A model generated the notes under the pieces. It was not told the origin of the DNA. It did not search any database and worked only from the letters and a program-made list of their open reading frames with translations. 64,000 nucleotides of DNA from Patescibacteria group bacterium. GTDB lineage: Bacteria > Patescibacteriota > Microgenomatia > UBA1400 > MFAQ01. Location of the stretch: contig CALRDV010000001.1 in assembly GCA_943355005.1 (NCBI GenBank), positions 178,059-242,058 of the forward strand, read 5' to 3'. Made by a program: the position numbers and the translations under genes. This document shows positions 4,196 through 43,414 of the stretch, piece after piece (position 1 is the first letter of the stretch; every line of letters starts with the position of its first letter).

Positions 4196-4230
4196 ATTTA
4201 CCCCTTATAATTAGTAAAAAGCTAATTTAT

Positions 4231-6407: not shown

Positions 6408-6447
6408 ACACTTGACTTTTTAGCCTCATAGGCCTATAATAAGCGAA

Positions 6448-7974: not shown

Positions 7975-9173
7975 ATCACTTCCCTCGCCAGCACATCGGA
8001 CTCTTGGTTGTGTTTTTCTGATACTTTAGTCTTGTAAAGTATTCCCAGTGCCAGGAGGCTAAACATTGAAGCAATCATGTATGGCAAATTTTCTCGATAT
8101 TGGAAAGCCAAACCAGACCCAATTGGAGCTAGGATGTTTGCGGCTGAAGATATTCCGGACAGGACACCTACTGCTTCTCCTCTTTCTTTGACGTCGGCTT
8201 CTCCCACAATCTCACTTGTCATAGCTACTCCTAGATTAGATTGTCCAAAGGCGGTAAAAATCATTCCGAGGACAAATATCCAAATTGAGTGAATAGACAT
8301 AAGGAGAAATCCAAAAGCAAAGAAACTAATCATCAATAAAATTAACTGTTTCTCTTTAAATTTCTGTAACCAGAAGTTCTTCAGCAAATATCCTTGATTA
8401 AGCGCCAGAATTACCCCAATGCCGGTAAAGAATAAGCCGGTCATGATTGGCGGAAAGCCGTAGGCTTTACCTAAGAAAAGTGCAAACACAGTATTGGATC
8501 CTACAGCTATGACGTTAAACATAAACCATACGATATATAGTGAGCGGAGTTTAATATTTTTGAAAGCTGCGACAATTGGCTTCAGGGGATTCCAGGTAAT
8601 TACCTTATCCTTATCAATATGTTTGTTGGTTTCAGGTAAGAAGAAGTAAGCCAAAATTACATTGATTAGAGCCATTCCTCCTACAAAGAAAAATGGAAAA
8701 GAGTGAGATACTTGCCCCAGCAGTCCACCAATCAGTGGTCCTACAATAAATCCGAGTCCAAATATCATTCCAATTATTCCCAAATTACCGGCTCTTTCTT
8801 TTGGGTCTTTAGCAATATCAGACATAGCCGATTGCGCAGTCGAAATATTCCCCGCCGCCAAACCATCTATGATTCTGCCGAGTAGTAGCAGAGGCATACT
8901 GTGACCAAGTGCAAAGATAAACCAGCCAATCGAAGTACTGGCAATGCTGGTGATTAATACGGGTCGGCGTCCGACTTTATCTGATAACACTCCCAAAAAA
9001 GGAGCACTTAGGAAAGAAAAAAGCGAGTAAACAGAGAAAAGTAGCGCCACGGAAAAAGCCGAAAGTCCAAAAGATTGTACGTATACAGGCAGTACCGGGA
9101 TGATTATCCCCAGCCCAATCACGTCAATTGCCGCCGTAAAAATAATTATTGCTTTTTCTTTTGACATGACCAT
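7971..9173 (-). CDS. MFS transporter
   Basis: 12 TM helices. MFS signature 'GRIIDGLAAGNISTAQSAMSDIA' lies between TM2 and TM3. Confidence 0.85.
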   Translation of the reverse strand: MVMSKEKAIIIFTAAIDVIGLGIIIPVLPVYVQSFGLSAFSVALLFSVYSLFSFLSAPFLGVLSDKVGRRPVLITSIASTSIGWFIFALGHSMPLLLLGRIIDGLAAGNISTAQSAMSDIAKDPKERAGNLGIIGMIFGLGFIVGPLIGGLLGQVSHSFPFFFVGGMALINVILAYFFLPETNKHIDKDKVITWNPLKPIVAAFKNIKLRSLYIVWFMFNVIAVGSNTVFALFLGKAYGFPPIMTGLFFTGIGVILALNQGYLLKNFWLQKFKEKQLILLMISFFAFGFLLMSIHSIWIFVLGMIFTAFGQSNLGVAMTSEIVGEADVKERGEAVGVLSGISSAANILAPIGSGLAFQYRENLPYMIASMFSLLALGILYKTKVSEKHNQESDVLAREVI

Positions 9174-9341
9174 CCATTTTACCCCACTCCAGGTTCATTT
9201 CCCATCCACCTACCCCATAACATTGACAAAAGCCCTCTCTTGTGGGATAATATTCATATTCTAGTAGCACATTCAGGCCAAAGGAGGCAAATATGATCAC
9301 TTCCGTCTTCTGAATGAGGTAAACCCTCATAAGGAGAATAA

Positions 9342-9686
9342 ATGAATCTTTATATCCGCACCATGTGGGTCTACGAGATCCACCGCAAGGTTCAGGAAAT
9401 ACACCACACTTACCAGGAAGTTTGCCCCAACTGCGCTTATTTTCTCGAGAAAAGTAATTTCTCCCGCGAAACTATACGCAACTTATCCTGGGGCTTGTGC
9501 GACGAGCATCTCGAAATCATCCGTCAGCTTCTCGCTGAGTCTGAAGGATATCATTTCGAACTCGAGCGTGACCTCGGTATTAGTGTGGATGGTTTCTTCC
9601 GCAATCTTCCCGACGGCCGCCCTTGCTCCATTCGCACCACTATCTGGCGCGACTACCTCCTGTCCTTGTGCACGACCCCCACCTAG
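9342..9686 (+). CDS. hypothetical protein (114 aa)
   Basis: Intact ORF ending inside a strong terminator hairpin. Confidence 0.4.
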   Translation: MNLYIRTMWVYEIHRKVQEIHHTYQEVCPNCAYFLEKSNFSRETIRNLSWGLCDEHLEIIRQLLAESEGYHFELERDLGISVDGFFRNLPDGRPCSIRTTIWRDYLLSLCTTPT

Positions 9687-9706
9687 CTAGGTGGGGTTTT
9701 TATTTT
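9677..9706 (+). terminator. Rho-independent terminator (perfect palindrome + T-run)
   Basis: ccccacctag|ctaggtgggg followed by tttttatttt. Lies between convergent genes. Confidence 0.8.
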
Positions 9707-9720
9707 GTCTCTCAAATTTT

Positions 9721-10290
9721 TTACCCTCTCAAAACCTCTACTGTATTTCCTAGCAAAGAAATCAGCTTCGAAGGCGACGAAATCTTTTCTCCGGCGTCTA
9801 TATAGATCACTTCATCATTTCCGAAATAGCCAATTGCCATATCAATATCTCTTGCCGGCTCGAGCCCTTCCGGATTCGCACTTGGTGCTATTAGCGGTCC
9901 TGACTCCTTTAGTAGTTTGCAAAGTAGCTCATCATCCGGAAATCTAAACGATAAAGATTCTGTTCCTCTCATTAAATAATCATATTTTTTGGTTCGGCAG
10001 GGGAGCTCTACACTTACTTTTCCCGGCCAATATTTTTCCAAGTTTTCTTTCTGTTCTGGATTAAGTTCAATATCAAACAAATTCAAATCCTCCATGTCAC
10101 CAATCAGCAGAATGCATTTTTTCTCAGGATTTCTGGATTTCAGCGAGTAAACTTTCTCCATCGCGGATTTATCTTTCGCCACTGCCACCAGTCCATAAAT
10201 CGTATCGGTCGGCAGCACAGCCACTCCACCACCGAGCAAGTACTCGGCAACCTCCTCAACAAGTGACTCCTTCCACTCCACAATTTTCAT
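9721..10290 (-). CDS. tsaC: L-threonylcarbamoyladenylate synthase (YrdC/TsaC family)
   Basis: 'GGVAVLPTDTIYGLVAVA' is the YrdC/Sua5 signature. Length 189 aa. Confidence 0.85.
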   Translation of the reverse strand: MKIVEWKESLVEEVAEYLLGGGVAVLPTDTIYGLVAVAKDKSAMEKVYSLKSRNPEKKCILLIGDMEDLNLFDIELNPEQKENLEKYWPGKVSVELPCRTKKYDYLMRGTESLSFRFPDDELLCKLLKESGPLIAPSANPEGLEPARDIDMAIGYFGNDEVIYIDAGEKISSPSKLISLLGNTVEVLRG

Positions 10291-15634: not shown

Positions 15635-16441
15635 CTATCTGGTCAGGTTGACAAAAGGAACTGTCGACCCCGGAATCATCTGTACAGGCAAAACACCATT
15701 CCATTTTTGAATAGCCTGGAGTGCCACATAGTCCGCTCCACCTTGCGAGTTTATTGCTTCAGCTTGAATACGAATAGTTTCAGCTTGAGCTTTGGCACTG
15801 ACAATTTGTTGTTCAGCCTCGTACTTGATCTGTTCCAATTTGTTTTTACTGGCCAAGGCATTCTGTTCTGCTACTACCTTAGCTTCGATAGATTTATCAA
15901 ACGATTCTGAAAAATCAAAATTGACAATATTCACCGCCTCGATGACGAAACCTCTTGCTTGCAGTCTTTCTTTGATATGAGATTCCATAAGTTCACGAAC
16001 AATAGCTCTCTTGGTAACAAGTTCTTCGGCGGTGAATTGAGCCGTCGAGGCCTTAATTGATTCTTGAACAGCAGGATCTATTACCCTGGCTTCGAAACTC
16101 CTACCCACAGTCTTATAAATATCCCCGACCAGAAGAGGGTTGAGACTAAAGTTTACCGCCACAGTTGCATTTATTGTTTGTAGATCTTTACTGGCTGAAT
16201 TTGCTTTTGCTTCATGCTTCTGTGTTTTTACGTCCATTTGAATAACATTTTCAATCAGTGGAATCTTAAAGTTTAGTCCCTCATCCATAACCCGAACAAC
16301 TCTTCCCAGTTGTACAACCACCCCTCTTTGTCCAGCTTGGATTATCGAGATAGGGTTAAGTACCATAATCGCTAAAATGACGATTAGAGGGATTAAATAT
16401 TTACCGACCACTCCCTTCACTTCATTCATGTCTTTGTTCAT
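15635..16441 (-). CDS. SPFH/band-7 (prohibitin/HflC-like) membrane protein
   Basis: N-terminal TM, SPFH core 'QAGQRGVVVQLGRV...', and a C-terminal coiled coil 'EQIKYEAEQQIVSAKAQAETIRIQAEA'. Confidence 0.85.
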   Translation of the reverse strand: MNKDMNEVKGVVGKYLIPLIVILAIMVLNPISIIQAGQRGVVVQLGRVVRVMDEGLNFKIPLIENVIQMDVKTQKHEAKANSASKDLQTINATVAVNFSLNPLLVGDIYKTVGRSFEARVIDPAVQESIKASTAQFTAEELVTKRAIVRELMESHIKERLQARGFVIEAVNIVNFDFSESFDKSIEAKVVAEQNALASKNKLEQIKYEAEQQIVSAKAQAETIRIQAEAINSQGGADYVALQAIQKWNGVLPVQMIPGSTVPFVNLTR

Positions 16442-16527
16442 ACCTATATGTTATCACTATGCGGACACAATCTTCTTTTCCCAGTAGCTAGGGATATTCT
16501 CTTTTCCGATTTCGACCGTTGCTTGCA

Positions 16528-17145
16528 TTACCTCACCCGTATCTCCAGCTCGCTCTTCTTATCCTTATATATCTCCTCAAACATCTTCATCGTAAAAAGA
16601 GCCGCCTCCGGAGCCATCTTATGGAATCGCCCGGAAATAGTTTTCGTCCCTCCACTGTATTCCATTTTGTATGTATGATACGGCTTAGTTTTTACAAAAA
16701 ATACTTGCTCGGGCACAAAAGTATTACTCACAAAGTCCATCTCGGCCAGCAACCCCAGCACCGAATAGTAGTACTTTTTATTTCCATTCTTTTTGTCGAT
16801 AGAGAAAGTAAACTCAAGCTTGCCTCGATAAGCCCAAAACTCGACACTTTTTTTGCCTCTCAAAAACACTATATATATGCATCCGGTCAACGCTTTCTCC
16901 AGAGCATACGTGATGTACTTCATTTCATCCTTTTTATCCTTAAAGTTATCTATCCGGTTCTGAACCCCTTCCGCAAACTCATCATGATTTTTGATCACCA
17001 GTCTAATACTGTTCCCATCCTTCCGAAACCAAAAATGCTTCCTCATCAGCTCCCCCCGAAAGATAAAGTTCTCCAGCCAATTGACCGCATACGCAATCAG
17101 ATAGACTCCCTTATAAAAAATTTTTGTAACCCACTCCATACCCAT
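16528..17145 (-). CDS. hypothetical protein, paralog of 44219..44845
   Basis: About 45% aa identity to the ORF at 44219..44845, in blocks such as 'KHFWFRKDG/KHFLFQKEG' and 'MFEEIYKDKK/MFEEIYKEKK'. The DNA of the C-terminal region is also similar. Confidence 0.6.
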   Translation of the reverse strand: MGMEWVTKIFYKGVYLIAYAVNWLENFIFRGELMRKHFWFRKDGNSIRLVIKNHDEFAEGVQNRIDNFKDKKDEMKYITYALEKALTGCIYIVFLRGKKSVEFWAYRGKLEFTFSIDKKNGNKKYYYSVLGLLAEMDFVSNTFVPEQVFFVKTKPYHTYKMEYSGGTKTISGRFHKMAPEAALFTMKMFEEIYKDKKSELEIRVR

Positions 17146-17175: not shown

Positions 17176-19047
17176 ATGGCCAATATCAGAAAAATTCTTT
17201 CTTTTCTTGGTCAATATCTGTGGAACAAGTATGTTCTGATTTTTTCGTTTCTCGCTATCCACCTTCTGGCCTTTCAGCGTGGTTATCAGGACATATACGT
17301 CATTCTCAGGTGCATTTTTTTGCTTTATTTCTTCTTGTTTTTTCTAAACGGCTTCTATAAATTTTTCCATTCACTTTCCGGATTTGCCCACAAAATCAAC
17401 TTCTACTTTTCTTTCTTGTTAGCCTTCTATTTCTTACAGGCATTTTTGGCCGGTGCCTCCCGCGAGGTAGTCAACACTTTCTGGTTACTAATTTGGGTAG
17501 CCATAGCTTCCTTGTTTATTCTTCCTTTTTACTCTTTTATTCGGCATTGGAGAACACACGAGAGAATTACCAAGAATCTGGTGCGAAACCCCAAACGCTT
17601 TCGTTTTTTTAAATTCATTTTTTCTTGGCGGGTATTCCTCTTGGTTTACGTGGCTTTTTGGTACGCCTTTTTCAAATTCCAATTTAATATCCATCTTCCA
17701 GACAATCCCTTGGTAATCATCATTTTGTTTTATCTTCCTATTTCCGTCTATGTTCTCAGTTTGGTTTCTCTCCACAGGATCTCTCGATTCTATTCCGTGC
17801 CTTTAAGCATTTTGGGGGTTATTGCCACCCCGATAACTATTTTCTATTTCTCACCGGATATAAATGCGGATGCAACCTTTGATGAACTCTATCGATACTT
17901 TATTAGTCTAGCGTTTCCAATTGGGGCAGCTTCGGTTTCCACTATCATTCTGGCTATTCCGGGGTACTTCCGTCTTCTTCTCAGAAAACCCCAATACTTC
18001 ATGTTCTCGGTTTTTACTCTCCTTCTCTTTGGTTACATTTTCATGGTTGAGTATCGCCTGTTCGTTCATATGGAGAGTTACGAAAAGTTCTTCTGCTCCT
18101 ACCAAGAAACCAAGAAGATTAATTCTCCCAAAGTTGTTCGCATCATGGGCTCTCGCTCGGAAGGCTCCGGTTTCTTTATCACAGATACGATGGTAGTCAC
18201 CAATCGTCATGTGGTCAAAGGAGAAGACTATCCCAAAGTAGTTTTGCCTTCGGGAGAGTTCCTTACACCGACAAAAGTAGAGATGTCCGTAGACTACGAC
18301 GTTGCTTTCCTGACAGTCGGTACACCCAAGCCGGACTATGCAATAAATCTACGCGAAGCAAAATTACTTTCCGGAGAAGAAGCCCTTTCTTTTGGCTACG
18401 CCCTCGGCTCAGATATCAAAGGAGCACCCACTATTCTCCCCATCCGCTATGAAGACTTGCGAGAGATGCCCAATGATCCAGCCAAATATCTTCAGTTTTC
18501 CTCCTCTATTGTCTCCGGCATGAGTGGTGGGCCGGTATTTGATAAGTGCGGTGATTTTGTAGGGATAAATGTTATGTCCACTTCAGGAACATCTCTCATT
18601 ATTTCTAAGTCCACCATGGCGGTTGCCGAGCAATCAAATAGAGAGGAGCCAAAGAAAATAAAACTGGAAGCAGGAGCAACTCCGGAAGATACCGTTTACG
18701 CTTACTACTATCTACTAAAGGCCAGAGAGACCCGGAAGTGTTATGACCTTCTTAGTACAAGTTACAAAACCCGGTCCACCTACGAGGAGTGGACAGCGCG
18801 GTTTCCACAGGTCATCAATGTTGTTGTTTTCACTGTAAAAGAACTCAAGCCAAACCTGGTCTACGTCATGTTCGGCATGGAAGAGTGGGTAAATGGCGAA
18901 AGAATATCTCAACTCTACGAAGGCACCTGGGAAACCATCAGAGAAGGAGAGTTCTACTTTTTAAACAGATCTTACATTCTGGAACTGGACAGCTTTTACG
19001 ATTCCCAAGGCCCAGAATTCTTCCTAAATCCAGAAGCAAAAAAGTAG
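17176..19047 (+). CDS. polytopic membrane protein fused to trypsin-like (S1/DegP-type) serine protease domain
   Basis: About 300 aa of TM helices precede a protease domain. Its catalytic triad is in 'VVTNRHVV' (His), 'DVAFL' (Asp) and 'GMSGGPVF' (Ser). Confidence 0.8.
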   Translation: MANIRKILSFLGQYLWNKYVLIFSFLAIHLLAFQRGYQDIYVILRCIFLLYFFLFFLNGFYKFFHSLSGFAHKINFYFSFLLAFYFLQAFLAGASREVVNTFWLLIWVAIASLFILPFYSFIRHWRTHERITKNLVRNPKRFRFFKFIFSWRVFLLVYVAFWYAFFKFQFNIHLPDNPLVIIILFYLPISVYVLSLVSLHRISRFYSVPLSILGVIATPITIFYFSPDINADATFDELYRYFISLAFPIGAASVSTIILAIPGYFRLLLRKPQYFMFSVFTLLLFGYIFMVEYRLFVHMESYEKFFCSYQETKKINSPKVVRIMGSRSEGSGFFITDTMVVTNRHVVKGEDYPKVVLPSGEFLTPTKVEMSVDYDVAFLTVGTPKPDYAINLREAKLLSGEEALSFGYALGSDIKGAPTILPIRYEDLREMPNDPAKYLQFSSSIVSGMSGGPVFDKCGDFVGINVMSTSGTSLIISKSTMAVAEQSNREEPKKIKLEAGATPEDTVYAYYYLLKARETRKCYDLLSTSYKTRSTYEEWTARFPQVINVVVFTVKELKPNLVYVMFGMEEWVNGERISQLYEGTWETIREGEFYFLNRSYILELDSFYDSQGPEFFLNPEAKK

Positions 19048-19142: not shown

Positions 19143-20039
19143 ATGACAAAACAAATTAAATCAAAAATTAAGGCCGACATTGAGAGTGTTTCGGGACCTA
19201 AACCATTCGTAAAATGGGTCGGTGGAAAAGGAAAATTAATTCCTGAGATGATGAAATTCATGCCATCTAAGTTCGAGCATTATTTTGAGCCATTTGTTGG
19301 CGGAGGAGCGCTATTCTTTTCAATTATTCAATCGAGAGATATTTCTTTTTCATGCATAAATGATATCAACAGTAAACTTACTAATTCCTACAAGCAAATA
19401 AAGCTGAACCCTGGGAGTTTAGTTTCTCAGTTAACTGTAATAGATTCAGGATACAAAAAACTGTCTCCCGAAGAAAGAAAAGAATATTTTTACGAAAAAA
19501 GAAGAATATACAATGAAGACAATCTCGATGAGTTAACACTTGCCAGTTATCTTATTTTTCTAAACAAAACTTGTTTTAATGGTATGTATAGGGAAAACTC
19601 TAAAGGTCATTACAACATACCATTTGGAGATCAGAAAAATCCCAAAATCTGCGATGAAGAAAATATTTATGCTGTATCTAAACACTTACAGAATACAGAA
19701 ATATGCAATTTATCATTCGAAAAATCAGTAGAAAACTGTCGGCAGGGTGATTTCATCTATTTCGACCCACCATATTATCCAATCAACAAGACATCAAGCT
19801 TTACCTCCTATTCAAAAAAATCTTTTGGTTCTCAGCAACAAGAAGAGTTGAGGGATGTTTTTGCCGCTCTTGCAAAAAAAGGCTGTTATGTAATGTTAAG
19901 TAATTCTCATACTCCAGAAGTTGAAAAACTCTATAAAGACTTCAACATTAACTATATATATGCGGCGAGATCGATAAACAGTGATGGAAGAAAAAGAGGA
20001 AAAATTAAGGAAGTGATAGTAACCAATTTTAAACACTGA
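19143..20039 (+). CDS. Dam-like (D12 class, alpha) N6-adenine DNA methyltransferase, DpnM/M.MboIA-like
   Basis: 'KPFVKWVGGKGKLIPEM', 'FEPFVGGGALFF' (motif I) and 'IYFDPPYY' (motif IV). Confidence 0.9.
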   Translation: MTKQIKSKIKADIESVSGPKPFVKWVGGKGKLIPEMMKFMPSKFEHYFEPFVGGGALFFSIIQSRDISFSCINDINSKLTNSYKQIKLNPGSLVSQLTVIDSGYKKLSPEERKEYFYEKRRIYNEDNLDELTLASYLIFLNKTCFNGMYRENSKGHYNIPFGDQKNPKICDEENIYAVSKHLQNTEICNLSFEKSVENCRQGDFIYFDPPYYPINKTSSFTSYSKKSFGSQQQEELRDVFAALAKKGCYVMLSNSHTPEVEKLYKDFNINYIYAARSINSDGRKRGKIKEVIVTNFKH

Positions 20040-20044: not shown

Positions 20045-20809
20045 TCAGACAATTTTATACCTACCAGAGTCAACAAGCTTAATGCTATTGTAATTCTCAG
20101 AATCTTCAAATTCAAACCGCCAAATGGAGTAGATGTCCCCCCCAATCTCTTTATCAAAGAATAATGTGGTTACCTTTTTTGTTGTACGACTCTGCCACTG
20201 CCTGTACGGATAATAGAGCTGTCGAATAATTATGTTTGAGGCATTAAAGTTTTTGGCTTCAATTAAAACTATTTGGTTCTTCCCTTCATATCCCGCATCT
20301 ACTTCTGTTTGCACACTTGAAGTCGAAATTTTATGTTTACCAATATAAAAATCAAAATCTGGTGTATACTTCCGACCTCTTATTGTTAATACAAGTGTAG
20401 GATCGTCTGTAATTGTTCTAATCAGGCTTGCGGCATAAGCATAATCAAGATGTTGCATTTCGGAATCTCCAATGGATGTTGTTTCTAAATGGAAGTCTAA
20501 TTTTGATCTATATTCAATTACATCAGTGTTAATTTCTGGAACGTCGACATAACCTTCCCCCTTAATAATATTATAAAAGCCATTCTTAACTGGGAGTATA
20601 AATAGGTTGTGATTTTTGAAGACTTCAGGTCTATCGTGTTTACAGTCCTGTTTGCACAGTATTCTTGGTTCCTTTTCGCCTGTCTCTGTAAAGTTTTGGC
20701 AGGCAATCTTTATCTGGTTAGCCGAAATTGGGTAGGGTGAATCATCAAAATTATGTTCAAGGATATTGTATACATCAAATATTTTTTTCCATGAAGCACT
20801 GTTTGCCAT
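20045..20809 (-). CDS. putative Type II restriction endonuclease (DpnII/MboI-type, GATC) - assignment by synteny
   Basis: 254-aa ORF sandwiched between a Dam-like and a DpnA-like methyltransferase, as in the dpnM-dpnA-dpnB cassettes. I could not verify a family motif. Confidence 0.5.
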   Translation of the reverse strand: MANSASWKKIFDVYNILEHNFDDSPYPISANQIKIACQNFTETGEKEPRILCKQDCKHDRPEVFKNHNLFILPVKNGFYNIIKGEGYVDVPEINTDVIEYRSKLDFHLETTSIGDSEMQHLDYAYAASLIRTITDDPTLVLTIRGRKYTPDFDFYIGKHKISTSSVQTEVDAGYEGKNQIVLIEAKNFNASNIIIRQLYYPYRQWQSRTTKKVTTLFFDKEIGGDIYSIWRFEFEDSENYNSIKLVDSGRYKIV

Positions 20810-20817: not shown

Positions 20818-21621
20818 TTATATACTTGAATCTACAGATGTGGAAGTTAATCTTTTATATCTTTTTATCGACAAGTCTAGATATTCTTTTTCTAGGTCAA
20901 AACCTAAAAATTTGCGATTGTAGATGGTTGCTGCTATGCCGGTGGTAGAGCTACCTGTAAATGGGTCTAGCACACGATCACCTTCATTTGTGCATGCCAT
21001 AATAATTCTTTTTAATAGATCAAGAGATTTTTGTGTAGGGTGTTTTCCGAAGGTTTTTTCATCTCTCTTTGGTGTCCCGATAGCCCAGACCGACCTCATT
21101 TGTAATCCTTGCTTTTTAATAGAGTCAGAGGGCCATTCACCATTTTTTAGAATGTCATAATTAAAGGTGTGAACTCCTTTTTGTTCTTTTCGTGCCCATA
21201 TTAGGGTCTCATGACTGGCAGTAAAAAATCTACAACTTAAATTTGGTGAGGCGTTTGGCTTATACCAGACAATTTCATTTAAGATACGATAGTTGTTTAG
21301 CTGTAGTGCGTAGCCACATTGATAAATGGAGTGGTATGTACCACTAATCCATATTGTTCCTCCTGGTTTTAGCACTCTCTTGCATTCCTTAATCCAGGAT
21401 TTATGAAACTTTAGGTTTTCCTCTAACCCATAACCCATATCCCATTCTCCTTTTTTTACACTAACCATTTTTCCATTCTGACAAGTAAATGTACCATTGG
21501 ACAAAAAATATGGTGGATCTGCGAATATCATATCGACAGAATTCTCCTTTACTTTTTTTAAGAGATCTAAACAATTCCCCTGATATAGCCTAAAATTTTT
21601 ATCCTCAAAATATGGAGACAT
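20818..21621 (-). CDS. DpnA/M.MboIC-like (beta-class) N6-adenine DNA methyltransferase
   Basis: 'VDMIFADPPYFLSNG', 'PNLSCRFFTASHETLIWARK', 'GKHPTQKS' and 'VLDPFTGSSTTGI' closely follow the layout of DpnA (M2.DpnII). Confidence 0.9.
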   Translation of the reverse strand: MSPYFEDKNFRLYQGNCLDLLKKVKENSVDMIFADPPYFLSNGTFTCQNGKMVSVKKGEWDMGYGLEENLKFHKSWIKECKRVLKPGGTIWISGTYHSIYQCGYALQLNNYRILNEIVWYKPNASPNLSCRFFTASHETLIWARKEQKGVHTFNYDILKNGEWPSDSIKKQGLQMRSVWAIGTPKRDEKTFGKHPTQKSLDLLKRIIMACTNEGDRVLDPFTGSSTTGIAATIYNRKFLGFDLEKEYLDLSIKRYKRLTSTSVDSSI

Positions 21622-21764
21622 AAATAAATACTAACCCAAACAAAACCAGAAGACAACGCATCATAAGGTATCATAATTTTTACAAAACAATAAATTTCAC
21701 AAAAAACTAAAAAATACTCCCATATTAACAATATACAGATATATTCTGGTAATATTGCCTTATC

Positions 21765-23816
21765 ATGTTAAAAGAACTTACTCTTAAAAAGACTTACGAC
21801 TCTGAAACTGACGATCTGCTAGGTCAGTTTTATATTCCAGCTCTTCAAAACAGTAAGTTTTATAATAGAATAACTGGATATTTTTCGGCTCAGGCGTTAG
21901 TATCCGCGGCCAAAGGTCTGTCTAATTTTTTCGTCAACAATGGACACTATAAACTAATTACTGGAATTATTACCTCTGAAAAAGATTTTGACGCTATAAA
22001 GAGTGGATTGGCAAAGGCTGAAGATGTCGTTCCGGAAAACCTTTTTTTAGACGAAGATGTCTTATACGATGAAATACAGCATGATTATCTTAAAATACTG
22101 GCATATTTAATTAGGGAGAACCGACTAGATATAAAGATTGCTGTATTACCAGAGTCACAAAGAGGAATATTTCATGAAAAAATAGGGATATTCGAGGACG
22201 AGGAGGGTGATAAAGTTTCTTTCAGTGGATCAATTAACGAAACTGGCAAGGGTTGGGGAAATAATAAAGAGGAGTTTAAAGTTTTTAGAAGTTGGGATGA
22301 GGGGCAAAATGAATATTTGAATACTGATTGTGACAAATTCGATAAATATTGGAACAATAGAGTATTTAGTTTTAACGTTATAGATATTCCGACCGCAATC
22401 AAACGTAATTTGATCAATATTGGATCAGATGAGAACATTGAGAGTGTATTAAAAAGAATTAGCTCTCGAGAAACTAAAGAGTCAGAACAAATAAAACTAC
22501 ACCCATTTCAAAATGAGGCTATAAAGTGCTGGATTGAAAACGGGAGCAGGGGTATTTTGGAAATGGCAACTGGAACCGGAAAAACATATACAGCTCTAGG
22601 AGCAGCAAAAATAATAATTAATAAATTCGAGAAAATTTGTCTAATAATCTCAGTTCCATATACTCATTTAGCCACACAATGGTCAAAGGATGTAAGTAGG
22701 TTCTTCCCAAAAATGATAGTAATTGCAGCACATAGTCAGTCTATTGGATGGGAAAAAAAGGTAAGTGAATTTCTGTCCGACTTCAGAGATGGAAATAGTG
22801 GTAGTTTCGCTATTATCGTTACTTACGACACACTTGCCTCGGAAAAGTTTATTCATCTTTTCTCAAAAAAAATGAATAAAAACAACGCTTATATGTTGAT
22901 CTCAGATGAGGTTCACAATATGGGGTCTTCTAGGAGAAAAAGTGGCATGATTGACGGAATCAATTTTAGGTTAGGACTGAGTGCAACACCAATGAGATGG
23001 CGTGATGAAGAGGGTACAGAAGAAATTAAAAAATATTTTGATAAATCTGTTTTTAAATACGATTTGAAACAAGCCATTGAAGATGGATTTTTGTCTCACT
23101 ATACATATCATCCAATTTTTGTAAAGATGTCAGAGGATGAGATGGAAAAATACGAAGAGTTTACTTTAAAGATAAGTAAAAGTTTTAGGGGGGGAGACAT
23201 TAATATAAATAATAGTTATATGAGTTTGTTGTTAATTCAGCGTAGTAAGGTATTAAAAAATATTAAGTCCAAAATAAATAGATTTGAAGAATTAATTACA
23301 ACCATGCGGTCTAATAATAAGACCGATCATCTGCTTGTTTACTGTGACGCAAGCGACCAGTTAAAAATTACCCAAGAGATTATAAATAAATATGGAATAA
23401 TTAATCATCAGTTTACTCAAGAAGAATCGAATGAAGAAAGAGAAAAAATTCTAAAAAATTTTGATACTGGCGTGTATGACTGCTTGGTAGCCATAAAGTG
23501 TTTGGATGAGGGTGTGAATGTACCTTCAACAAAAAGAGCAATAATATTAGCTAGTACAACAAATCCTCGTGAATATATACAAAGGCGAGGCAGAGTACTT
23601 AGAAAAATAGATGGACAAGAGAAAATTGCAGAAATATATGACTTTACTGTTCTTCCACCAGACGATAAAGGAAAAGAGGTAATCTCAGAAACTGAAAGAA
23701 AGATTTTTAAGAACGAACTCACCAGAATTGAAGAGTTTTTAGACACAGCCGACAATAAAGCTGAGGTGTTGATTGAAATTAATCAATATATGTTAAAATA
23801 CGAAGTATACCTATAA
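21765..23816 (+). CDS. PLD-family nuclease domain fused to SF2 (DExH) helicase
   Basis: N-terminal HKD motif 'FHEKIGIFEDEEGDKVSFSGSINET'. Helicase motif I 'ATGTGKTYTA', motif II 'ISDEVHNMG' and motif VI 'QRRGRVLR'. Confidence 0.8.
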   Translation: MLKELTLKKTYDSETDDLLGQFYIPALQNSKFYNRITGYFSAQALVSAAKGLSNFFVNNGHYKLITGIITSEKDFDAIKSGLAKAEDVVPENLFLDEDVLYDEIQHDYLKILAYLIRENRLDIKIAVLPESQRGIFHEKIGIFEDEEGDKVSFSGSINETGKGWGNNKEEFKVFRSWDEGQNEYLNTDCDKFDKYWNNRVFSFNVIDIPTAIKRNLINIGSDENIESVLKRISSRETKESEQIKLHPFQNEAIKCWIENGSRGILEMATGTGKTYTALGAAKIIINKFEKICLIISVPYTHLATQWSKDVSRFFPKMIVIAAHSQSIGWEKKVSEFLSDFRDGNSGSFAIIVTYDTLASEKFIHLFSKKMNKNNAYMLISDEVHNMGSSRRKSGMIDGINFRLGLSATPMRWRDEEGTEEIKKYFDKSVFKYDLKQAIEDGFLSHYTYHPIFVKMSEDEMEKYEEFTLKISKSFRGGDININNSYMSLLLIQRSKVLKNIKSKINRFEELITTMRSNNKTDHLLVYCDASDQLKITQEIINKYGIINHQFTQEESNEEREKILKNFDTGVYDCLVAIKCLDEGVNVPSTKRAIILASTTNPREYIQRRGRVLRKIDGQEKIAEIYDFTVLPPDDKGKEVISETERKIFKNELTRIEEFLDTADNKAEVLIEINQYMLKYEVYL

Positions 23817-23838
23817 TAGTCAATTAAGGTAATACACT

Positions 23839-24027
23839 ATGCCTACCATAAATGAAAATGTACTGAGTGAAATAAATTGTCTTCCCAATACTACAGATGA
23901 AATGAAAAGTTTTTTGAAATGGATTCTAGGCTATGAAAGGGACCATGCGGAACAGAGAGCTTTCTATAAGGTTGATATTGAAAAAAAACTTGATCAAACA
24001 TTAATTATTAATAAAGCCAACAATTAA
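23839..24027 (+). CDS. small protein (62 aa), translationally coupled to downstream ATPase
   Basis: Its stop codon TAA overlaps the ATG of the next gene (TAATG). Confidence 0.35.
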   Translation: MPTINENVLSEINCLPNTTDEMKSFLKWILGYERDHAEQRAFYKVDIEKKLDQTLIINKANN

Positions 24028-25949
24028 TGTTAAGTATAAGACGTATTCAAATTAAGAACTTTAGACAGTATCAGAATGTTGAACTATTTTTTGATGACTC
24101 TAGAGATATGCACTTATTTATTGGTAAAAATGGCATGGGTAAGTCAAATTTTCTAAATGCAATTTATTGGTGTCTTTATGCACACCAGCCTTTTAAATTT
24201 CACGAGGAAGATAAACAACTATTAAATGAAGAGACTTCAAAAAAAGAACCAAATGGTGAAATAAAAGTTGAATTAGAAATAGAAATGGACGATGGTAGAA
24301 CAACACTATTCAGAAGACAACTTAGTGAAGCTTGGGACAATTCAAAATTTACTGTAATGGAAAAGACACCCAGAGGATGGGAGCCTGTTGATGACCCCAC
24401 CTCAATTCGCAACGCCTTTCTTCCAGAGAGTATAAGTAAATTCTTTTTGTTTGATGGAGAAGCTGTTCAAAAACTATATAAAGGTGATTACGCAAAAAAT
24501 CTAAAGGAGGGTATTCTTCGCGTTTCTGATATAACTGTACTTGATTCTAGCCTTGAACATGTCGCAAATACTTATGAAGATATTAGAAAAAGGGTCAGTA
24601 AGGATAATCCGGACACAAATAATCAAGAAAAAATATTAGAAGTATTACAGGTCCAAAAAACAAAACTTGAATCACAATATCAGTTAAATGAGTCAAATAT
24701 AAAAAATCTCAAAGCTGGCATTCAACAACTTGAAACAAAACTAGATGGGTATAGAGAATATGAACACTTTCAAAAAGAAAAAAGGCAACTTGAATCAGAC
24801 ATAACTGATTCTGAAATCCAAATTACAGCATATCGTGAACAGGTAAATAATATAATAACTGAGTACGCACCATTTTGGTTTATCAAAGAAGCGCTGGTTG
24901 AGATTGCTATACAAATCAACCAAGCAGAAAAAAGGGGTGAAATTCCTCCTGATATTAATCCCGACTATGTTAACCAGCTGATTAAAAACAAACAGTGCAT
25001 TTGCGGCACACATATTAATGATGGTGATTCTGCATATAAATATCTGAATGACCTTATCACAAAAATATCTCCACTTAGTGATCGTACATATCTAATAAAG
25101 GACAATGTTAAAGTCGGCTCCTTAATCGTAAAAGTTTCCCGCGAAATTCCGAATATTCTCAAAGAAATACGCAACAAGAGAGCACAGATTAGACAAAGGA
25201 GTATCACTCTTAAAAAGCAACTTGACGAGATCAAAGAAAAGCTTATACACGCACCGGAACGAGAGGTGGGCAGTATTCAAATAACATTAAATAATAATAA
25301 AAATGAAATAGAATCTAGGCTTAAGGATAAGGGCCAGTTAGAACTCGAGATAAAACAGACAACTTCACAAATTCAAGAAATCCTTGAAAAACTCGAAAAG
25401 ATGAACAGGGGAAAAGAAAGATTTCAAATGGAAAACAATAAAGCTAATTTTCTGGAGGAAGCTAGGGATAAACTTGAATTGATAAGAGAAAAGATAATTC
25501 GTCAAGTTAGGGAAAGTGTGTCGGCGCACACAGACAGATATTTTAAGGAACTAATATGGAAGAAGGAGGATTTTGATAGAATCAGCTTCACAGAGGACTA
25601 TAGTGTTGAAGTTCTAAAAAGGAATTCATCATCGAATAGTTTTAAGGACCTGTCTACAGGAGAGATGAAAGTTCTAAGCTTGGCGACAATAAAAGCACTT
25701 GATATATTAAGCGGATATTCAAATGTGCCTTTATTTGTTGACGGTCCTCTTGAAAACCTGGACGAAGAGGTACAGGAAAACTTCTTAAAGTTTCTTCCAA
25801 AATTTATGGAAAATAAACATGTGTTTATCTTTTCACTCGACAAACCAGTTATGTTATCTTTTGGAAATAAGGTAGTAGCGCCAGAGAATTTTTACAAATT
25901 AACACGAATTAACAGCTCCCATTCTACAAGTATTCAAAAATATGATTGA
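24027..25949 (+). CDS. SMC/Rad50/DndD-like split-head ABC ATPase with central coiled coil
   Basis: N-terminal Walker A 'FIGKNGMGKSNFLNAI'. Long E/K/Q-rich coiled coil with a central 'CICGTH' Cys pair. C-terminal signature 'LSTGEMKVLSLA' and Walker B/D-loop 'LFVDGPLENLDEE'. Confidence 0.8.
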   Translation: MLSIRRIQIKNFRQYQNVELFFDDSRDMHLFIGKNGMGKSNFLNAIYWCLYAHQPFKFHEEDKQLLNEETSKKEPNGEIKVELEIEMDDGRTTLFRRQLSEAWDNSKFTVMEKTPRGWEPVDDPTSIRNAFLPESISKFFLFDGEAVQKLYKGDYAKNLKEGILRVSDITVLDSSLEHVANTYEDIRKRVSKDNPDTNNQEKILEVLQVQKTKLESQYQLNESNIKNLKAGIQQLETKLDGYREYEHFQKEKRQLESDITDSEIQITAYREQVNNIITEYAPFWFIKEALVEIAIQINQAEKRGEIPPDINPDYVNQLIKNKQCICGTHINDGDSAYKYLNDLITKISPLSDRTYLIKDNVKVGSLIVKVSREIPNILKEIRNKRAQIRQRSITLKKQLDEIKEKLIHAPEREVGSIQITLNNNKNEIESRLKDKGQLELEIKQTTSQIQEILEKLEKMNRGKERFQMENNKANFLEEARDKLELIREKIIRQVRESVSAHTDRYFKELIWKKEDFDRISFTEDYSVEVLKRNSSSNSFKDLSTGEMKVLSLATIKALDILSGYSNVPLFVDGPLENLDEEVQENFLKFLPKFMENKHVFIFSLDKPVMLSFGNKVVAPENFYKLTRINSSHSTSIQKYD

Positions 25950-26352
25950 CATAGACGAAGGATATCCCCAGACGATTAAAATGGACCGGAGTGTAAAGGC
26001 CACATATCTTGAACCATTAATAAATACTACTTCTTCTCAGTTTTATAAAAAAGAACAAGGTGAAGTTTATTTCATAGCTGCTGCAATTGGATACAAAAAC
26101 AATGTGAGTCAGGAAACGAGCGACACCACAGACATCAGACTTTATAGTAGTCTCAGAGACGAATCCAAGCTTCTTATCAGGCTTATCGCGCTAGCTCACA
26201 GTAAATACGATTATGAACTCCTAAGGGATGGAAAAAAAGTATGTAAAATTATCGAAGAATATGCTAACGGTGGAATGAAATTATTACATGACAAGATATT
26301 TAAAGGTTCGGATTTTTCTCTTGAAGATGAAGTTTTTGTGACAGAGGAATAA
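25942..26352 (+). CDS. small protein (136 aa) overlapping the end of the ATPase gene by 8 nt
   Basis: Operonic overlap. No motif recognised. Confidence 0.5.
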   Translation: MIDIDEGYPQTIKMDRSVKATYLEPLINTTSSQFYKKEQGEVYFIAAAIGYKNNVSQETSDTTDIRLYSSLRDESKLLIRLIALAHSKYDYELLRDGKKVCKIIEEYANGGMKLLHDKIFKGSDFSLEDEVFVTEE

Positions 26353-28229: not shown

Positions 28230-29099
28230 ATGATGGAAACAACCAAGGATTCCCGAGATCGCATAGCCACCAGAGTATTTGAAGTGCTTAAGCGCCGAGG
28301 TGATGCTCTCACGAATAGGGAGATTTATGAGCGAATTGCCGATGAATTGAACCTTACGGAGGCAGACATGATGGATAAGTACGACTCCGGTCTATTTAAA
28401 TACCGAAACATGATCCAATTTGGCCTTCTTGGCCTAAAGAAAATGGGACTCGTTACTAATGAAGAGAGAGGACTCTGGTCCTTGACCAATCAGGGTAGGG
28501 ACAAGGATAGGCTTAGTATCGATGAATATACCGATTTCCAACGAAAGTTTTGGAATGAAGAGGTGTCCAAAAAGAGAAGGGGATTGTCCCAGGATGGTCT
28601 ATCTGGAGACAGAGCTTTTAATATTGACTCCTCCCACGGAAGAAGTCCTAAAGAAAGAATACTTCTCGAAATACTTGAACAGAACAAACGCATCTTGGAC
28701 TATTTACTCCCGAGATCTCGATTTAATGCTTCTCCGAAGCATCGTTCCTTTGATGAGAGACTTGTCACGGATGAACCTTATTATTTGAGAGGTAACGGAT
28801 ACAACGCTCAAGGAGTAATGCAAAAAAATGGGGAATTCTTAATTATAAAGAACTCTCTAGCAAAAATCGAAGAATCCGAGAATCTTGCGGGAACTTTGGC
28901 GCACAAGGAAAGACAAAGACTGGTTATGGAAAGAAAATTATTAAAATTTCCCACTAATATGTATAGTTTTGAGGATGAAATTATTTTCAAAAATCCAACC
29001 ATAGCTGGAGGTGTGATTGTGGGTAGAAGGATAAATGGCTGGACTGCTTGGAGAAGTTCGATTAGCGGTAAGACACTCGACGAAATTGTTAGAAGATAA
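28230..29099 (+). CDS. Mrr_N-like winged-helix N-terminal domain protein with DUF4357-like C-terminus
   Basis: The N-terminus 'RIATRVFEVLKRRGDALTNREIYERIADEL...FKYRNMIQFGLLGLKKMGLV' resembles the Mrr N-terminal wHTH. The C-terminal 'GRRINGWTAWR' block resembles DUF4357. Confidence 0.55.
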   Translation: MMETTKDSRDRIATRVFEVLKRRGDALTNREIYERIADELNLTEADMMDKYDSGLFKYRNMIQFGLLGLKKMGLVTNEERGLWSLTNQGRDKDRLSIDEYTDFQRKFWNEEVSKKRRGLSQDGLSGDRAFNIDSSHGRSPKERILLEILEQNKRILDYLLPRSRFNASPKHRSFDERLVTDEPYYLRGNGYNAQGVMQKNGEFLIIKNSLAKIEESENLAGTLAHKERQRLVMERKLLKFPTNMYSFEDEIIFKNPTIAGGVIVGRRINGWTAWRSSISGKTLDEIVRR

Positions 29100-38379: not shown

Positions 38380-39522
38380 ATGTCTGAATCTAGCACAGAA
38401 TACGATGGTCGGTTGACCGATGTCATGAATTATCCTCCATCAGGAGAACGTGAAGGTAATGATAAAAATTTTGAAGTAATTGGAATTCCGGCTTTTGTTG
38501 CTGAGTTCAATGCTAAGGCATCAGTCGCCCAAAAAAGAGCTTTAATGCAGACGATGTATCTCTTACCTTCTCACTTTAGTGATTTACTGGTAAATTCTCT
38601 CGTAAAAGCCTCTAAGAGGGGAGTTGAGGCTTCTATCGTTACGGATGGCATTGTCAAAATTTCTCGAGCCAGAGACAAGGCAACTGCGGCAATTCTTGGT
38701 AGCAACTCTACCAGGGAATTTGACGTATATGCTACTAAAAAAATGGATGAAAAACTGAAAGACAGTGGAGTAAAAGTAGTAGAAAGTCGACCTTTTACCA
38801 AGCTTAACCTGCTTTTATTCGCTTTCAAAAGAAATCACTTCAAAATGGCAGTAGTAGATAATACAGCCTGGATTGGAGGACTCAACGCAGGCAAAGAATC
38901 TGATTTTAATCGGATAGATTTTATGATGAGGGTTACGGACCAAGAACTGGTTGACGAATTGGCATCAATTATTCAGGCACCGGAAAAAATAAATAAGGAT
39001 TATTCAAAAACAGTTGGCAATGTAGATTTGATTGTTGATGGTGGTGTTCCAGGTCAATCTATTATTATGGAAAAAGTTAACCAGGCAATTGAGTCTATTG
39101 AGCATCCTGAGGATGCAGAAATTACAATTCTCTCCCCGTGGGTTCCGGATGGTAAATTGCTTGATGTCTTACATGAAGCAGGGTTGAAGGGTACAAAAAT
39201 TACCGTTGTTACGAGTTATCACCCTTTTGAATTCGCCTTCGAAGGGGTTTACGCATTGGTAAAAAATTACAACATTCTAATGATGAATCTAAAAGGTAAA
39301 AGACTCACAACCTTATACACGCCTTTAGAGGTCCATGGAAAGATGTTATTTATCAGAGACGGCTCAAAGAAAACTGCCATGATTACAACTCACAACTTTA
39401 CAGACAAGGGTGTAAAGATGGGAACGGCAGAGATCGCTCTCATGTCTCAAAACGAAACTTTTGCAGATTCTTGTAACACTTTTATAGAAAAAGTAAAATC
39501 TGTCTCAAAAACCACAAAATAA
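38380..39522 (+). CDS. PLD-superfamily protein (one canonical and one degenerate HKD motif)
   Basis: Motif 1 'HFKMAVVDNTAWIGGLNAG'. Motif 2 'VHGKMLFIRDGSKKTAMITTHNFTD' is degenerate. Confidence 0.5.
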   Translation: MSESSTEYDGRLTDVMNYPPSGEREGNDKNFEVIGIPAFVAEFNAKASVAQKRALMQTMYLLPSHFSDLLVNSLVKASKRGVEASIVTDGIVKISRARDKATAAILGSNSTREFDVYATKKMDEKLKDSGVKVVESRPFTKLNLLLFAFKRNHFKMAVVDNTAWIGGLNAGKESDFNRIDFMMRVTDQELVDELASIIQAPEKINKDYSKTVGNVDLIVDGGVPGQSIIMEKVNQAIESIEHPEDAEITILSPWVPDGKLLDVLHEAGLKGTKITVVTSYHPFEFAFEGVYALVKNYNILMMNLKGKRLTTLYTPLEVHGKMLFIRDGSKKTAMITTHNFTDKGVKMGTAEIALMSQNETFADSCNTFIEKVKSVSKTTK

Positions 39523-39619
39523 AACCATTAAGTTGCAAAATCTGATGTTGGGCACTGGAAGAATCGGGATAGAACCAAAGCTGGGAGGAGTTTAAGTTTT
39601 TCTCTGGTACAAAATAGAT

Positions 39620-39970
39620 TTATATTGCTAAAAAAAATCCAATAATCACGACTATGATACTCCAGATCTGTGTTTTCCAGCCTTTATGGCGACGAAAAGC
39701 GCTATCTGGTAAAGCAAAAATCGACGCAGGAAAAACGCTGACTAAAGAACTATTCTTCAGTGAAGGTTTGAGAGTGTATGATTCCTTCTTAAAAAAATAA
39801 TATATACCACCAATTATTAGCAAGATACCAAACAGACGAGTTGATTTACCATCTAGAATAAAAGTCATAAAATTCGGAAATAAAACAGCAATCATTAAGA
39901 ATAGAAACGTAAGAATAGCTGATCCGAAAACACCGTATTTATAGTTCTTAGCTACATCCTTTTGCTTCAT
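39620..39970 (-). CDS. small membrane protein (116 aa)
   Basis: Three TM helices. Confidence 0.4.
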   Translation of the reverse strand: MKQKDVAKNYKYGVFGSAILTFLFLMIAVLFPNFMTFILDGKSTRLFGILLIIGGIYYFFKKESYTLKPSLKNSSLVSVFPASIFALPDSAFRRHKGWKTQIWSIIVVIIGFFLAI

Positions 39971-42079: not shown

Positions 42080-42128
42080 AAATAAGACTGGATTATTATC
42101 CAAAACCTCAGTCACATCTAGCCACCAT

Positions 42129-42695
42129 CTAATTTACTTTTACGAAACCAACATACCCCGGTATATGTGTTTTGCCAGAGAGTGCCGCAGCAATACTTCG
42201 ATGAGAACCATCATCAGAGTCAACTGGAAGAACCTGGAGAGATAAGTCTTTGCGAATTTCTCCTCCCTGATACACTATTGGTGGAAAGTAACTAGTAATA
42301 ATATCGGGGTATCGAGAAATGACCTTAATGCGCCTGATAGAGTCAGAGTCAACATTGGGGTTACATTTTATCTTCGACGCAACATCGACTACTGACATCG
42401 AGCACCATTCTTCTGGTAAATCACCTGTAGCGTACCAGGGGGCAAGGTACTTTAGTTCTATAGATTTGAAAACCCATGAGTGTTTTTGGTACAACTCAAA
42501 TCTCCACATCTCAGTAGGCAAGAGTGTATACAGTTGATCCAAAGTCAAATGATCAATTTTTGATTTTTGAATTTCAAACTTCTTAACCAAGTCGTCAGTA
42601 GAATCGTCCAAAGATATCTCATCTTTTATCAAATTAGATTTTACAAAAGAACAAATTACCTCAATTGGATCTACAATTTGATCAAAATTCTGCAT
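42129..42695 (-). CDS. hypothetical protein (188 aa)
   Basis: Intact ORF. Confidence 0.45.
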   Translation of the reverse strand: MQNFDQIVDPIEVICSFVKSNLIKDEISLDDSTDDLVKKFEIQKSKIDHLTLDQLYTLLPTEMWRFELYQKHSWVFKSIELKYLAPWYATGDLPEEWCSMSVVDVASKIKCNPNVDSDSIRRIKVISRYPDIITSYFPPIVYQGGEIRKDLSLQVLPVDSDDGSHRSIAAALSGKTHIPGYVGFVKVN

Positions 42696-42798
42696 AGCAA
42701 TTCCAAGTATACAAAACCTACACTAGTTTAGGTAATCACATTCGCTGCTGACCTGGGGTCGCTGATATAGAATCAATATATACTGACAAAAGAACAAA

Positions 42799-43269: not shown

Positions 43270-43414
43270 TAATAAAAGCTTGTGAGCCATCTGGGACTGG
43301 CACACTTTCGTCGCTATAACTGTCTCATACTTGAGGCTAAATAAGACAAATGAGACAGTATAAAAGGGCAAGGCGAATCGAGAACAATGATATAGATTGA
43401 TATAGTAAAAAGGT

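Follow-up and report, generated by a model that had tools for sequence, protein, structure and literature searches.

A divergent, intact PbeABCD cassette without neighbouring dnd genes, located beside adenine methyltransferase genes in a Patescibacteria genome

The window considered here, a 64-kb stretch of contig CALRDV010000001.1 from a Patescibacteria group bacterium, carries at positions 21765-26352 four co-directional open reading frames (ORFs) on the + strand, which encode proteins of 683, 62, 640 and 136 amino acids (aa), respectively. Judged from its sequence, this operon is, with a probability of about 0.95, a PbeABCD cassette, also known as the CxC ABC ATPase-DndE-anchored conflict system. 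The pbeABCD genes were named in the haloarchaeon Haloterrigena jeotgali (Natrinema thermotolerans) A29 (Xiong et al. 2019, PMC6459918), and PbeABCD was equated with the CxC ABC ATPase-DndE system in a 2024 reappraisal from the Aravind group (PMC10853773). According to the anatomy described in the latter, PbeA joins an HKD endoDNase to an SF2 helicase, PbeB is small and rapidly evolving, PbeC is a CxC zinc-hook ABC ATPase rather than an SMC protein, and PbeD is a cognate of DndE. The operon of the window is a divergent, intact and dnd-less member of this known family and not a new system, the divergence being deduced from NCBIfam matches that sit under the curated equivalog cut-offs.

Operon layout

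The four genes are packed tightly. The first, pbeA (21765..23816, + strand, 683 aa), encodes an N-terminal single-HKD nuclease domain of the PLD family fused to an SF2 DExH helicase/translocase, and is followed by pbeB (23839..24027, + strand, 62 aa), encoding a small, fast-diverging protein predicted to be helical, pbeC (24027..25949, + strand, 640 aa), encoding a coiled-coil ABC ATPase with a CxC hook that forms a sister clade of DndD, and pbeD (25942..26352, + strand, 136 aa), whose product is a predicted DNA-binding protein with the DndE fold, cognate to the CxC ATPase. As read from the sequence, a spacer of 22 nucleotides (nt) containing AAGG separates the stop codon of pbeA from pbeB, pbeB and pbeC share a TAATG stop/start overlap at 24025-24029, and pbeC overlaps pbeD by the 8 nt ATGATTGA (25942-25949). 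This direct reading bears out the coordinates and junctions of the original prediction, which had been made from the DNA alone and had described four tightly spaced genes on one strand.

Upstream of pbeA, a divergent, AT-rich intergenic region of 143 nt (21622..21764, no strand assigned) separates the operon from a methyltransferase (MTase) gene of the N6_N4 family and presumably holds the promoter. A promoter consensus scan returned 35 matches for 34.4 expected and a terminator scan 5 for 4.0 expected, both at chance level. The GC content falls to 31-35% across ~19-27 kb, compared with roughly 40% on both sides, and both the pbe genes and a set of restriction-modification (RM) genes lie inside this low-GC island, for which no tRNA genes marking the boundaries were found.

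The four gene products

PbeA matches the PADLOC PbeA profile PDLC02707 with an E value of 4.2e-227 over residues 2-668 of the 672-position profile, as well as the NCBIfam model TIGR04095, dnd_restrict_1 ("DNA phosphorothioation system restriction enzyme"), with an E value of 3.1e-134, and its Pfam domains are ResIII, Helicase_C and PLDc_2. The HKD motif consists of H137, K139, D145 and SGSxN at residues 154-158 (H137-N158 corresponding to nt 22173-22238), and the SF2 motifs GTGKT, DEVH, SAT and QRRGR are located C-terminal of the HKD domain. Alignments with 22 diverse and 26 close homologues show no variation in the HKD motif or in helicase motifs I, II, III and VI. The fusion of an HKD nuclease with an SF2 helicase, proposed originally, is thus upheld by Pfam, PADLOC and the invariant motifs. 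Among 5.8 billion clusters the nearest PbeA is 55% identical, and full-length homologues with 34-38% identity are encoded by two uncultured gut phage genomes (MT835493.1 and MT835506.1). PbeA also gives weak matches to ResIII, HsdR and EcoAI models. Assignment to a Type III Res/Mod RM system was rejected, since the nuclease is an N-terminal HKD domain and not a C-terminal PD-(D/E)xK one, no mod gene is present in the operon, and the best PADLOC and NCBIfam matches are the Pbe and dnd_restrict models.

The 62-aa ORF is identified as PbeB by its position and by iterated homology. It occupies the pbeA-pbeC gap, whose length of 112-273 nt is conserved, and an iterated local jackhmmer search connected it with the ORFs filling this gap at 63 loci. 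The motif SEI..L.NT.EMK.FL.W[IV]L.[YF]ER is kept in all eight close loci, and the confidence of a single-sequence AlphaFold2 (AF2) model, which comprises a short and a long helix and is of low confidence overall (pLDDT 71.6), peaks over this conserved motif. Other searches returned little: a full HMMER scan of 1.84 billion representatives yielded 12 weak small-protein relatives, a word-seeded search only the query itself, and Pfam, PADLOC (E<=10 for both) and NCBIfam no match at all. The gene evolves faster than the other three (dN/dS 0.10-0.28 in dnd-less relatives).

PbeC is matched by the PADLOC PbeC profile PDLC02723 with an E value of 1e-91, the DndD models being weaker (3e-38); its match to the NCBIfam DndD model TIGR03185 (E 4.5e-37, 128 bits) remains under the 246-bit equivalog cut-off, and matches to NCBIfam Rad50 models are weak. 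The protein contains the Walker A motif GKNGMGKS (nt 24123-24146), LSTGE, the Walker B residue D572 and, in its middle, the sequence CIC (C324/C326, nt 24996-25004). Across 127 aligned ATPases from Pbe cassettes, C324, C326, G38, K39 and D572 are 100% conserved, which confirms the cysteine pair and the Walker motifs of the coiled-coil ABC ATPase recognized at the outset. PbeD, whose gene overlaps the end of pbeC, has the DndE fold (a double ribbon-helix-helix, RHH). It matches NCBIfam TIGR04062, dnd_assoc_4 ("DNA phosphorothioation-associated protein 4"), with an E value of 5.8e-10, and the precomputed Pfam label PF27807, DNA_S_mod_dnd_assoc_4, is attached to PbeD and to all ten relatives. Pfam and PADLOC searches at E<=10 gave nothing meaningful for it, and a PbeD profile run against the PDB sequences gave chance matches only, its kinship with DndE being visible by fold alone.

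Identity and distribution of the cassette

Contrary to the original prediction, which found no named match and proposed a candidate new nuclease-helicase module with an SMC-like sensor, the operon has names in several resources: PADLOC recognizes PbeA (4e-227) and PbeC (1e-91), NCBIfam models apply, RefSeq relatives bear identical product names in the same gene order, and the architecture and gene order are published (PMC6459918, PMC10853773). That this is nevertheless a previously undescribed system has a negligible probability. In its favour, local Pfam searches give generic domains only and nothing for the two small proteins, but the full-length strong PbeA and PbeC matches, the dnd-associated NCBIfam models, the DndE fold and the published gene order speak against it. 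Two observations weigh against the assignment to PbeABCD itself: the NCBIfam scores stay below their equivalog cut-offs (448 vs 600, 128 vs 246 for DndD, and 39.5 vs 74 bits), and neither of the small proteins (62 and 136 aa) matches a PADLOC model of PbeB or PbeD, even with a threshold of E<=10. DndD/DndE proper, DISARM, Septu, Gabija and Rad50/SbcCD were considered and rejected, none of them being the best model match and their defining partners being absent. Strong hits of the ATPase and the 136-aa protein to DndD and DndE, with dndA and dndC nearby, had been named beforehand as an outcome that would contradict novelty; the two are indeed members of the DndD and DndE families, yet the window contains neither dndA nor dndC.

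The co-occurrence of the four genes was assessed in a sample with one genome per species, obtained by a degenerate-pattern scan with the PbeA alignment. Relatives of PbeA were encoded by 485 of the matched stretches, and 80 loci, spread over many phyla of bacteria and archaea, were retained (individual loci are cited below by number, as in L082), 68 of which were testable, having room downstream of the PbeA match. A PbeC-like ATPase follows PbeA after 112-273 nt in 63 of the 68, a called small ORF lies in the gap between them in 55, and a PbeD-like ORF abuts PbeC likewise in 55. The A-B-C-D order is therefore found far beyond chance, and the neighbourhood check suggested with the original prediction comes out in favour of a true four-gene unit, the PbeA-PbeC pair alone recurring in 63/68 loci. 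An enlarged set comprised 126 cassettes. A metagenome scan with the single PbeA sequence found nothing and one with the clade alignment found only relatives of 33-44% identity; the close clade was sampled instead via contigs encoding relatives. Taken together with a general role in defence, the PbeABCD identity is highly probable, and the initial description of a defence-type operon in a defence-island setting is supported.

Solitary cassettes are common. Among 553 pbeAC pairs, 320 (58%) were classed as "solitary", 155 of these being near methyltransferases (PMC6459918), and according to the 2024 study such systems also exist in the absence of dnd genes, in some cases coupled to cytosine methylases (PMC10853773).

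Neighbouring restriction-modification genes

Three RM genes precede the cassette. A D12-class N6-adenine DNA MTase (19143..20039, + strand; Pfam MethyltransfD12, 5.9e-59) is a candidate partner of the pbe genes and is DpnM-like, its best solved relative being DpnM/M1.DpnII (2dpm, E 8.9e-74); DpnM is the GATC MTase of DpnII. The next gene encodes a candidate type II restriction endonuclease (REase; 20045..20809, - strand; Pfam DUF6996+DUF6997, PADLOC REase_II 2.5e-31), for which no solved relative was found and which is likely the cognate of the flanking MTases; its plasmid homologues adjoin genes annotated "DNA adenine methylase". The second candidate partner is a beta-class N6_N4 DNA MTase (20818..21621, - strand; Pfam N6_N4_Mtase, 1.6e-55), divergent from pbeA. 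For this gene the ENA call is 206 aa long and the supported ORF 267 aa; the Pfam domain covers residues 29-252 of the latter and the homologue at L082 aligns from residue 4, so that the public call is probably truncated at its N-terminus.

Of the "DpnII-type RM cassette" reported earlier beside the operon, the D12 and N6_N4 MTases are present, but the REase carries DUF6996/DUF6997 and is not of the DpnII family (PF04556). The Mrr_N protein reported on the other side is present at 28230-29099. It also possesses a C-terminal DUF4357 and matches the PADLOC candidate family PDC-S14 (1.8e-18); no match to the Mrr catalytic domain was obtained, and it is thus not a classical Mrr restriction enzyme. 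With regard to base composition, the observed/expected (O/E) ratio of GATC is 0.72 in the window and 0.56 in its first 19 kb, which is weakly suggestive. The most under-represented 4-bp palindrome in the window is GGCC (O/E 0.59, ahead of GATC at 0.72), which hints at HaeIII-type restriction pressure in the lineage.

Partners of the cassette and the candidate self mark

A Pfam scan covering ~48 of some 55 larger ORFs, among them all that have the size of DndC or DndA, revealed no PAPS_reduct/DndC/SspD PP-loop protein, Aminotran_5 cysteine desulfurase, DndB or DUF4007 in the 64-kb window, in agreement with the earlier statement that DndA and DndC are lacking nearby. Likewise, the 10 kb around the cassettes of the seven closest relatives inspected, whose PbeA proteins are 50-57% identical to that of the window, contain no dnd or ssp gene. 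In all seven an adenine MTase adjoins the cassette, starting 3-126 nt beyond pbeD: a D12-class enzyme of ~455 aa in six, and a DpnII REase together with an N6_N4 MTase in the seventh (L082). The outer flanks of these loci are unrelated and hold prophage tail/lysis genes, type IV secretion system (T4SS)/conjugation genes or housekeeping genes. The N6_N4 MTase of the window is 67% identical to that of L082, which exceeds the PbeA identity between both loci. When PbeC and PbeD similarities are compared, the seven MTase-linked relatives form a group sharply apart from all other sampled cassettes.

Outside this group, DpnM-like Dam genes stand in operon register with pbe cassettes at four distant loci (L140, L133, L123 and L077); at L140 the Dam gene overlaps pbeA by 4 nt, and at L077 it starts 3 nt after pbeD. 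A cassette copy on a Leuconostoc plasmid has an adenine methylase nearby. Comparison of the window PbeD with those of seven distant Dam- or N6_N4-linked loci gave z scores of 2.2-2.8 in four and about zero or negative in three.

Beyond methyltransferases, a census of the genes within 5 kb of the 126 cassettes recorded cysteine desulfurase 35 times, DndD 23 times, DndC 22 times and DndB 8 times, further partners being an Ssp-like set (DUF4007 and a ~1200-aa ORF), GmrSD, a radical-SAM-like protein (38 loci) and adenine MTases. The Pbe cassette is thus a module that pairs with varied partners.

Two of these partners deserve a description of their own. The Ssp-like set precedes ~19 Firmicutes cassettes (e.g., L078:5200-8814, L055:4321-5217 and L054) and is composed of a cysteine desulfurase, a DUF4007 (SspB-like) protein, a ~1200-aa ORF without Pfam match and a PP-loop ORF of 570-580 aa, an arrangement that points to Ssp-type phosphorothioation as a further partner of Pbe modules. 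Next to 38 of the 126 cassettes, 35 of which have no other recurrent partner, lies an ORF of ~390-490 aa, in most cases co-directional, with the canonical CxxxCxxC sequence and a weak Pfam Radical_SAM match (27 bits). Its median distance from the cassette is 108 nt; examples are L103:13303-14772 (+ strand), L007:12463-13725, L020:8940-10382 and L042:7891-10005 (fused, 704 aa), and companions of 232 aa occur at L019:9280-9978, L021:3777-4475 and L057:4451-5155. A radical-SAM partner for CxC/Pbe systems is unmentioned in PMC10853773, and the ORF could be an undescribed DNA-modification partner.

In close relatives, the unit formed by an MTase and pbeABCD stands directly after prophage tail/lysis genes (Phage_tube_2, TMP, Amidase_2) at L083 and L168 (upstream 1-9800), and beside T4SS/relaxase genes at L084 and L167. 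Together with the PbeA homologues encoded by phages, these settings indicate that the cassette travels on mobile elements.

As for the mark by which the cassette of the window would distinguish self from non-self, the likeliest candidate, which is put forward tentatively, is N6-methyladenine (m6A), probably at GATC, rather than phosphorothioate (PT), because dnd and ssp genes are absent from the window, the RM genes share the low-GC island with the cassette and the relatives carry an adjacent adenine MTase. In the archaeal model, PT likewise sits within a GATC core (GpsATC, PMC6459918). With a shade less assurance, the distinct Pbe subclade that includes the window cassette may be supposed to have exchanged phosphorothioation for N6-adenine methylation of the Dam family, probably at GATC. 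Published work testing the reading of m6A by Pbe was not found, and the idea was floated in general terms in 2019.

Several observations weigh against such a coupling. The MTases of the window already have an REase of their own, and their adjacency to pbeA could reflect the clustering of defence genes in islands. The best solved relative of the N6_N4 MTase is CcrM, which acts on GANTC (6.6e-52), the specificities of the window MTases and REase being presumed. The Dam enzyme of the window and the ~455-aa D12 MTase found in the relatives are not orthologous, and some dnd-less plasmid cassettes have no MTase nearby, as on an L. plantarum plasmid that carries neither MTase nor dnd genes around the cassette. 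Finally, PbeA and PbeC co-diverge (Spearman 0.93) and PbeA and the D12 MTase do not (0.26, not significant), and the dS of the MTase is saturated where that of the pbe genes is 0.5-0.7. This absence of co-divergence implies that the modification partner is exchangeable; co-evolution between DndCD and PbeAC is likewise lacking (Xiong et al., PMC6459918).

Proposed working and rival explanations

In the model system of strain A29, protection against the virus SNJ1 is ~10^4-fold and needs all four pbe genes, those of PbeB (66 aa) and PbeD (152 aa) included; viral DNA replication is halted without detectable degradation (PMC6459918). Protection depends on PT placed at GpsATC by DndCDEA: the DndA C344S substitution abolishes PT and with it the protection, and PT-modified virus escapes (PMC6459918). 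In the window cassette, PbeC would dimerise via its CxC zinc hook, as suggested by the domain anatomy and PMC10853773, and PbeC together with the double-RHH PbeD would load on DNA, scan it with the help of ATP and read the host mark at specific sites. PbeA would be the effector, combining a helicase motor with a single HKD domain that needs dimerisation, and would block or nick unmarked invading DNA, whereas the small helical subunit PbeB, essential in the model system, may have a regulatory function. The role assigned to PbeA is weakened by a disagreement over cleavage, since degradation was not seen in PMC6459918 and cleavage is argued from the conserved HKD motif in PMC10853773.

Whether the window cassette reads methylation at all has to be weighed against other explanations. 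The cassette could still be phosphorothioate-dependent, if dnd or ssp genes lay in another part of the genome, beyond the window; the RM system next to it would then be unrelated. This accords with the only experimental system, which needs PT, and with the independent evolution of modification and Pbe modules (PMC6459918), as well as with the frequency of Dnd partners in the sample, where a DndC-like PP-loop ORF lies within 10 kb in 35 of the 80 genome loci and where the census of 126 cassettes is led by cysteine desulfurase (35), followed by DndD (23), DndC (22) and DndB (8). It is nonetheless unlikely, given that neither the 64 kb of the window nor the 10 kb around the seven closest relatives contain dnd or ssp genes, and that these relatives carry the cassette with an MTase on prophages and conjugative elements, which suggests a self-contained mobile unit. 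The same experiments that favour PT dependence count against a modification-independent abortive-infection or suicide module, in which PbeB would restrain PbeA until a viral factor removes PbeB and the RM system would be a mere neighbour: protection in the model was lost without PT, and PT-modified virus escaped (PMC6459918). Such a module, proposed as the alternative model of PMC10853773, would account for the 22 of 126 cassettes without a recurrent partner gene within 5 kb, for the L. plantarum plasmid cassette devoid of MTase and dnd genes, and for PbeB being the fastest-evolving component (dN/dS up to 0.28, few detectable relatives), as expected for contact with a viral factor. As it leaves the 3-5-nt adjacency of the MTase in the close clade unexplained, it is held to be rather unlikely, if a little less so than dependence on PT.

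A solitary cassette could also be an inactive remnant for want of its PT partner, as Xiong et al. 2019 considered under their possibility (1) (PMC6459918), and some relatives are indeed disrupted by insertion sequences, as is pbeC of the Leuconostoc plasmid. In the window, however, the four ORFs are intact, every catalytic motif is present and the overlapping start and stop codons are preserved. In dnd-less relatives, moreover, all four genes are under strong purifying selection, with dN/dS values of 0.07-0.09 for pbeA, 0.10-0.28 for pbeB, a gene of 72 codons there, 0.05-0.10 for pbeC and 0.02-0.10 for pbeD. Selection of this kind means that dnd-less cassettes are not remnants, and decay of the present one is very unlikely.

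Other elements in the window

Further defence-like and mobile genes are found at a distance from the pbe operon. A second defence-like operon (47918-56096) encodes a 1107-aa HKD+SNF2 helicase, matching PADLOC DrmD and 'HKD+Snf2' C3a139, whose gene overlaps by 4 nt that of a 1097-aa type IIG-like REase-MTase/PglX-like protein, followed by a ParB_N+N6_N4 MTase at 54750-56096. The region 38380-45963 holds a protein with two PLD domains (NgoFVII-like, weak DrmC match), a 705-aa DEAH/HA2 helicase, a DUF5677 protein and an FtsK-gamma/FtsK-like protein, and may be another conflict or mobile-element cluster. Two large serine recombinases (56653-57978 and 59949-61418) flank a Schlafen/AlbA_2 protein (57968-58990; PADLOC PDC-S19); the right-hand third of the window has the look of an integrated mobile element, or of several. 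At 62165-63619, an HATPase_c_3 protein with a strong PADLOC MzaB match (E 1.6e-76) may be part of an Mza (Menshen-type) system running past the window end. Lastly, a Trypsin_2 protein is encoded within a few kb of the Pbe cassette both in the window (17176-19047) and in three of the seven close relatives (L082:7907-9076 and 16369-16878; L083:20532-22052; L168:16097-17850). In the relatives it often adjoins a PDDEXK_1 nuclease; it could belong to an independent defence unit of two genes or be a neighbour common to these islands.

Significance

Since the system is already named, modelled in PADLOC and NCBIfam and covered by an experimental paper, the locus does not constitute the discovery of a new one. 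Its value lies in being a clean, intact example of the majority class, the "solitary" Pbe cassettes, for which the question of self/non-self discrimination is raised in both key papers. Four points are added here: dnd-less cassettes are under strong purifying selection; adenine MTases, three kinds of them, flank one subclade without exception among the sampled relatives; unrelated lineages have DpnM-like Dam genes in operon register with their cassettes; and the gene for the modification can be exchanged and shows no co-divergence with the cassette. Thanks to these points, the proposition that Pbe reads methylation becomes directly testable with a small construct. Should the mark prove to be m6A, the scanner made up of the CxC ATPase and DndE would read modification status in general and could be re-targeted from a backbone to a base mark, and the MTase with PbeABCD would form a five-gene, R-M-like mobile unit carried by prophages and conjugative elements.

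Comparison with known systems

The closest characterized counterpart is PbeABCD of H. jeotgali A29 (PMC6459918), which has the same four genes in the same order, small proteins of similar size (PbeB of 66 vs 62 aa, PbeD of 152 vs 136 aa), a helicase-type PbeA, an SMC/Rad50-like PbeC and an equally tight packing, the A29 genes being co-transcribed as one unit. The window cassette differs in having adenine MTases and a type II REase alongside instead of adjacent dndCDEA, in belonging to a lineage of ~39% GC, in its divergent sequences, and in being known from its genes alone. With the CxC ABC ATPase-DndE systems it shares all four components and the dnd-independent occurrence. However, the partners given for those systems are cytosine C5/N4 methylases and MTaX1 (PMC10853773), whereas adenine MTases accompany the window cassette and its close clade (mostly D12; N6_N4 and DpnII at L082), and the window PbeB is predicted by the low-confidence AF2 model to be helical over its conserved part and not mostly disordered.

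When DndABCDE is considered, PbeC is homologous to DndD along its whole length and PbeD has the DndE fold, but PbeC remains under the DndD equivalog cut-off and bears a CxC hook that is absent from DndD (PMC10853773), and the window lacks DndA, DndB and DndC and has a nuclease-helicase effector attached instead. Type I and III restriction enzymes (HsdR/Res) resemble PbeA in the fusion of an SF2 translocase with a nuclease, and here, too, an adjacent adenine MTase could supply the self mark; unlike in those enzymes, the nuclease is an N-terminal HKD/PLD domain and not PD-(D/E)xK, Mod and HsdM/HsdS are missing, and DNA recognition would presumably fall to the PbeC-PbeD pair. Finally, PbeC has the split ABC head, the intervening coiled coil and the midpoint cysteine hook of Rad50/SbcC, from which it is set apart by a hook of CxC rather than CxxC, the lack of an Mre11/SbcD partner and a much shorter coiled coil within a protein of 640 aa in total.

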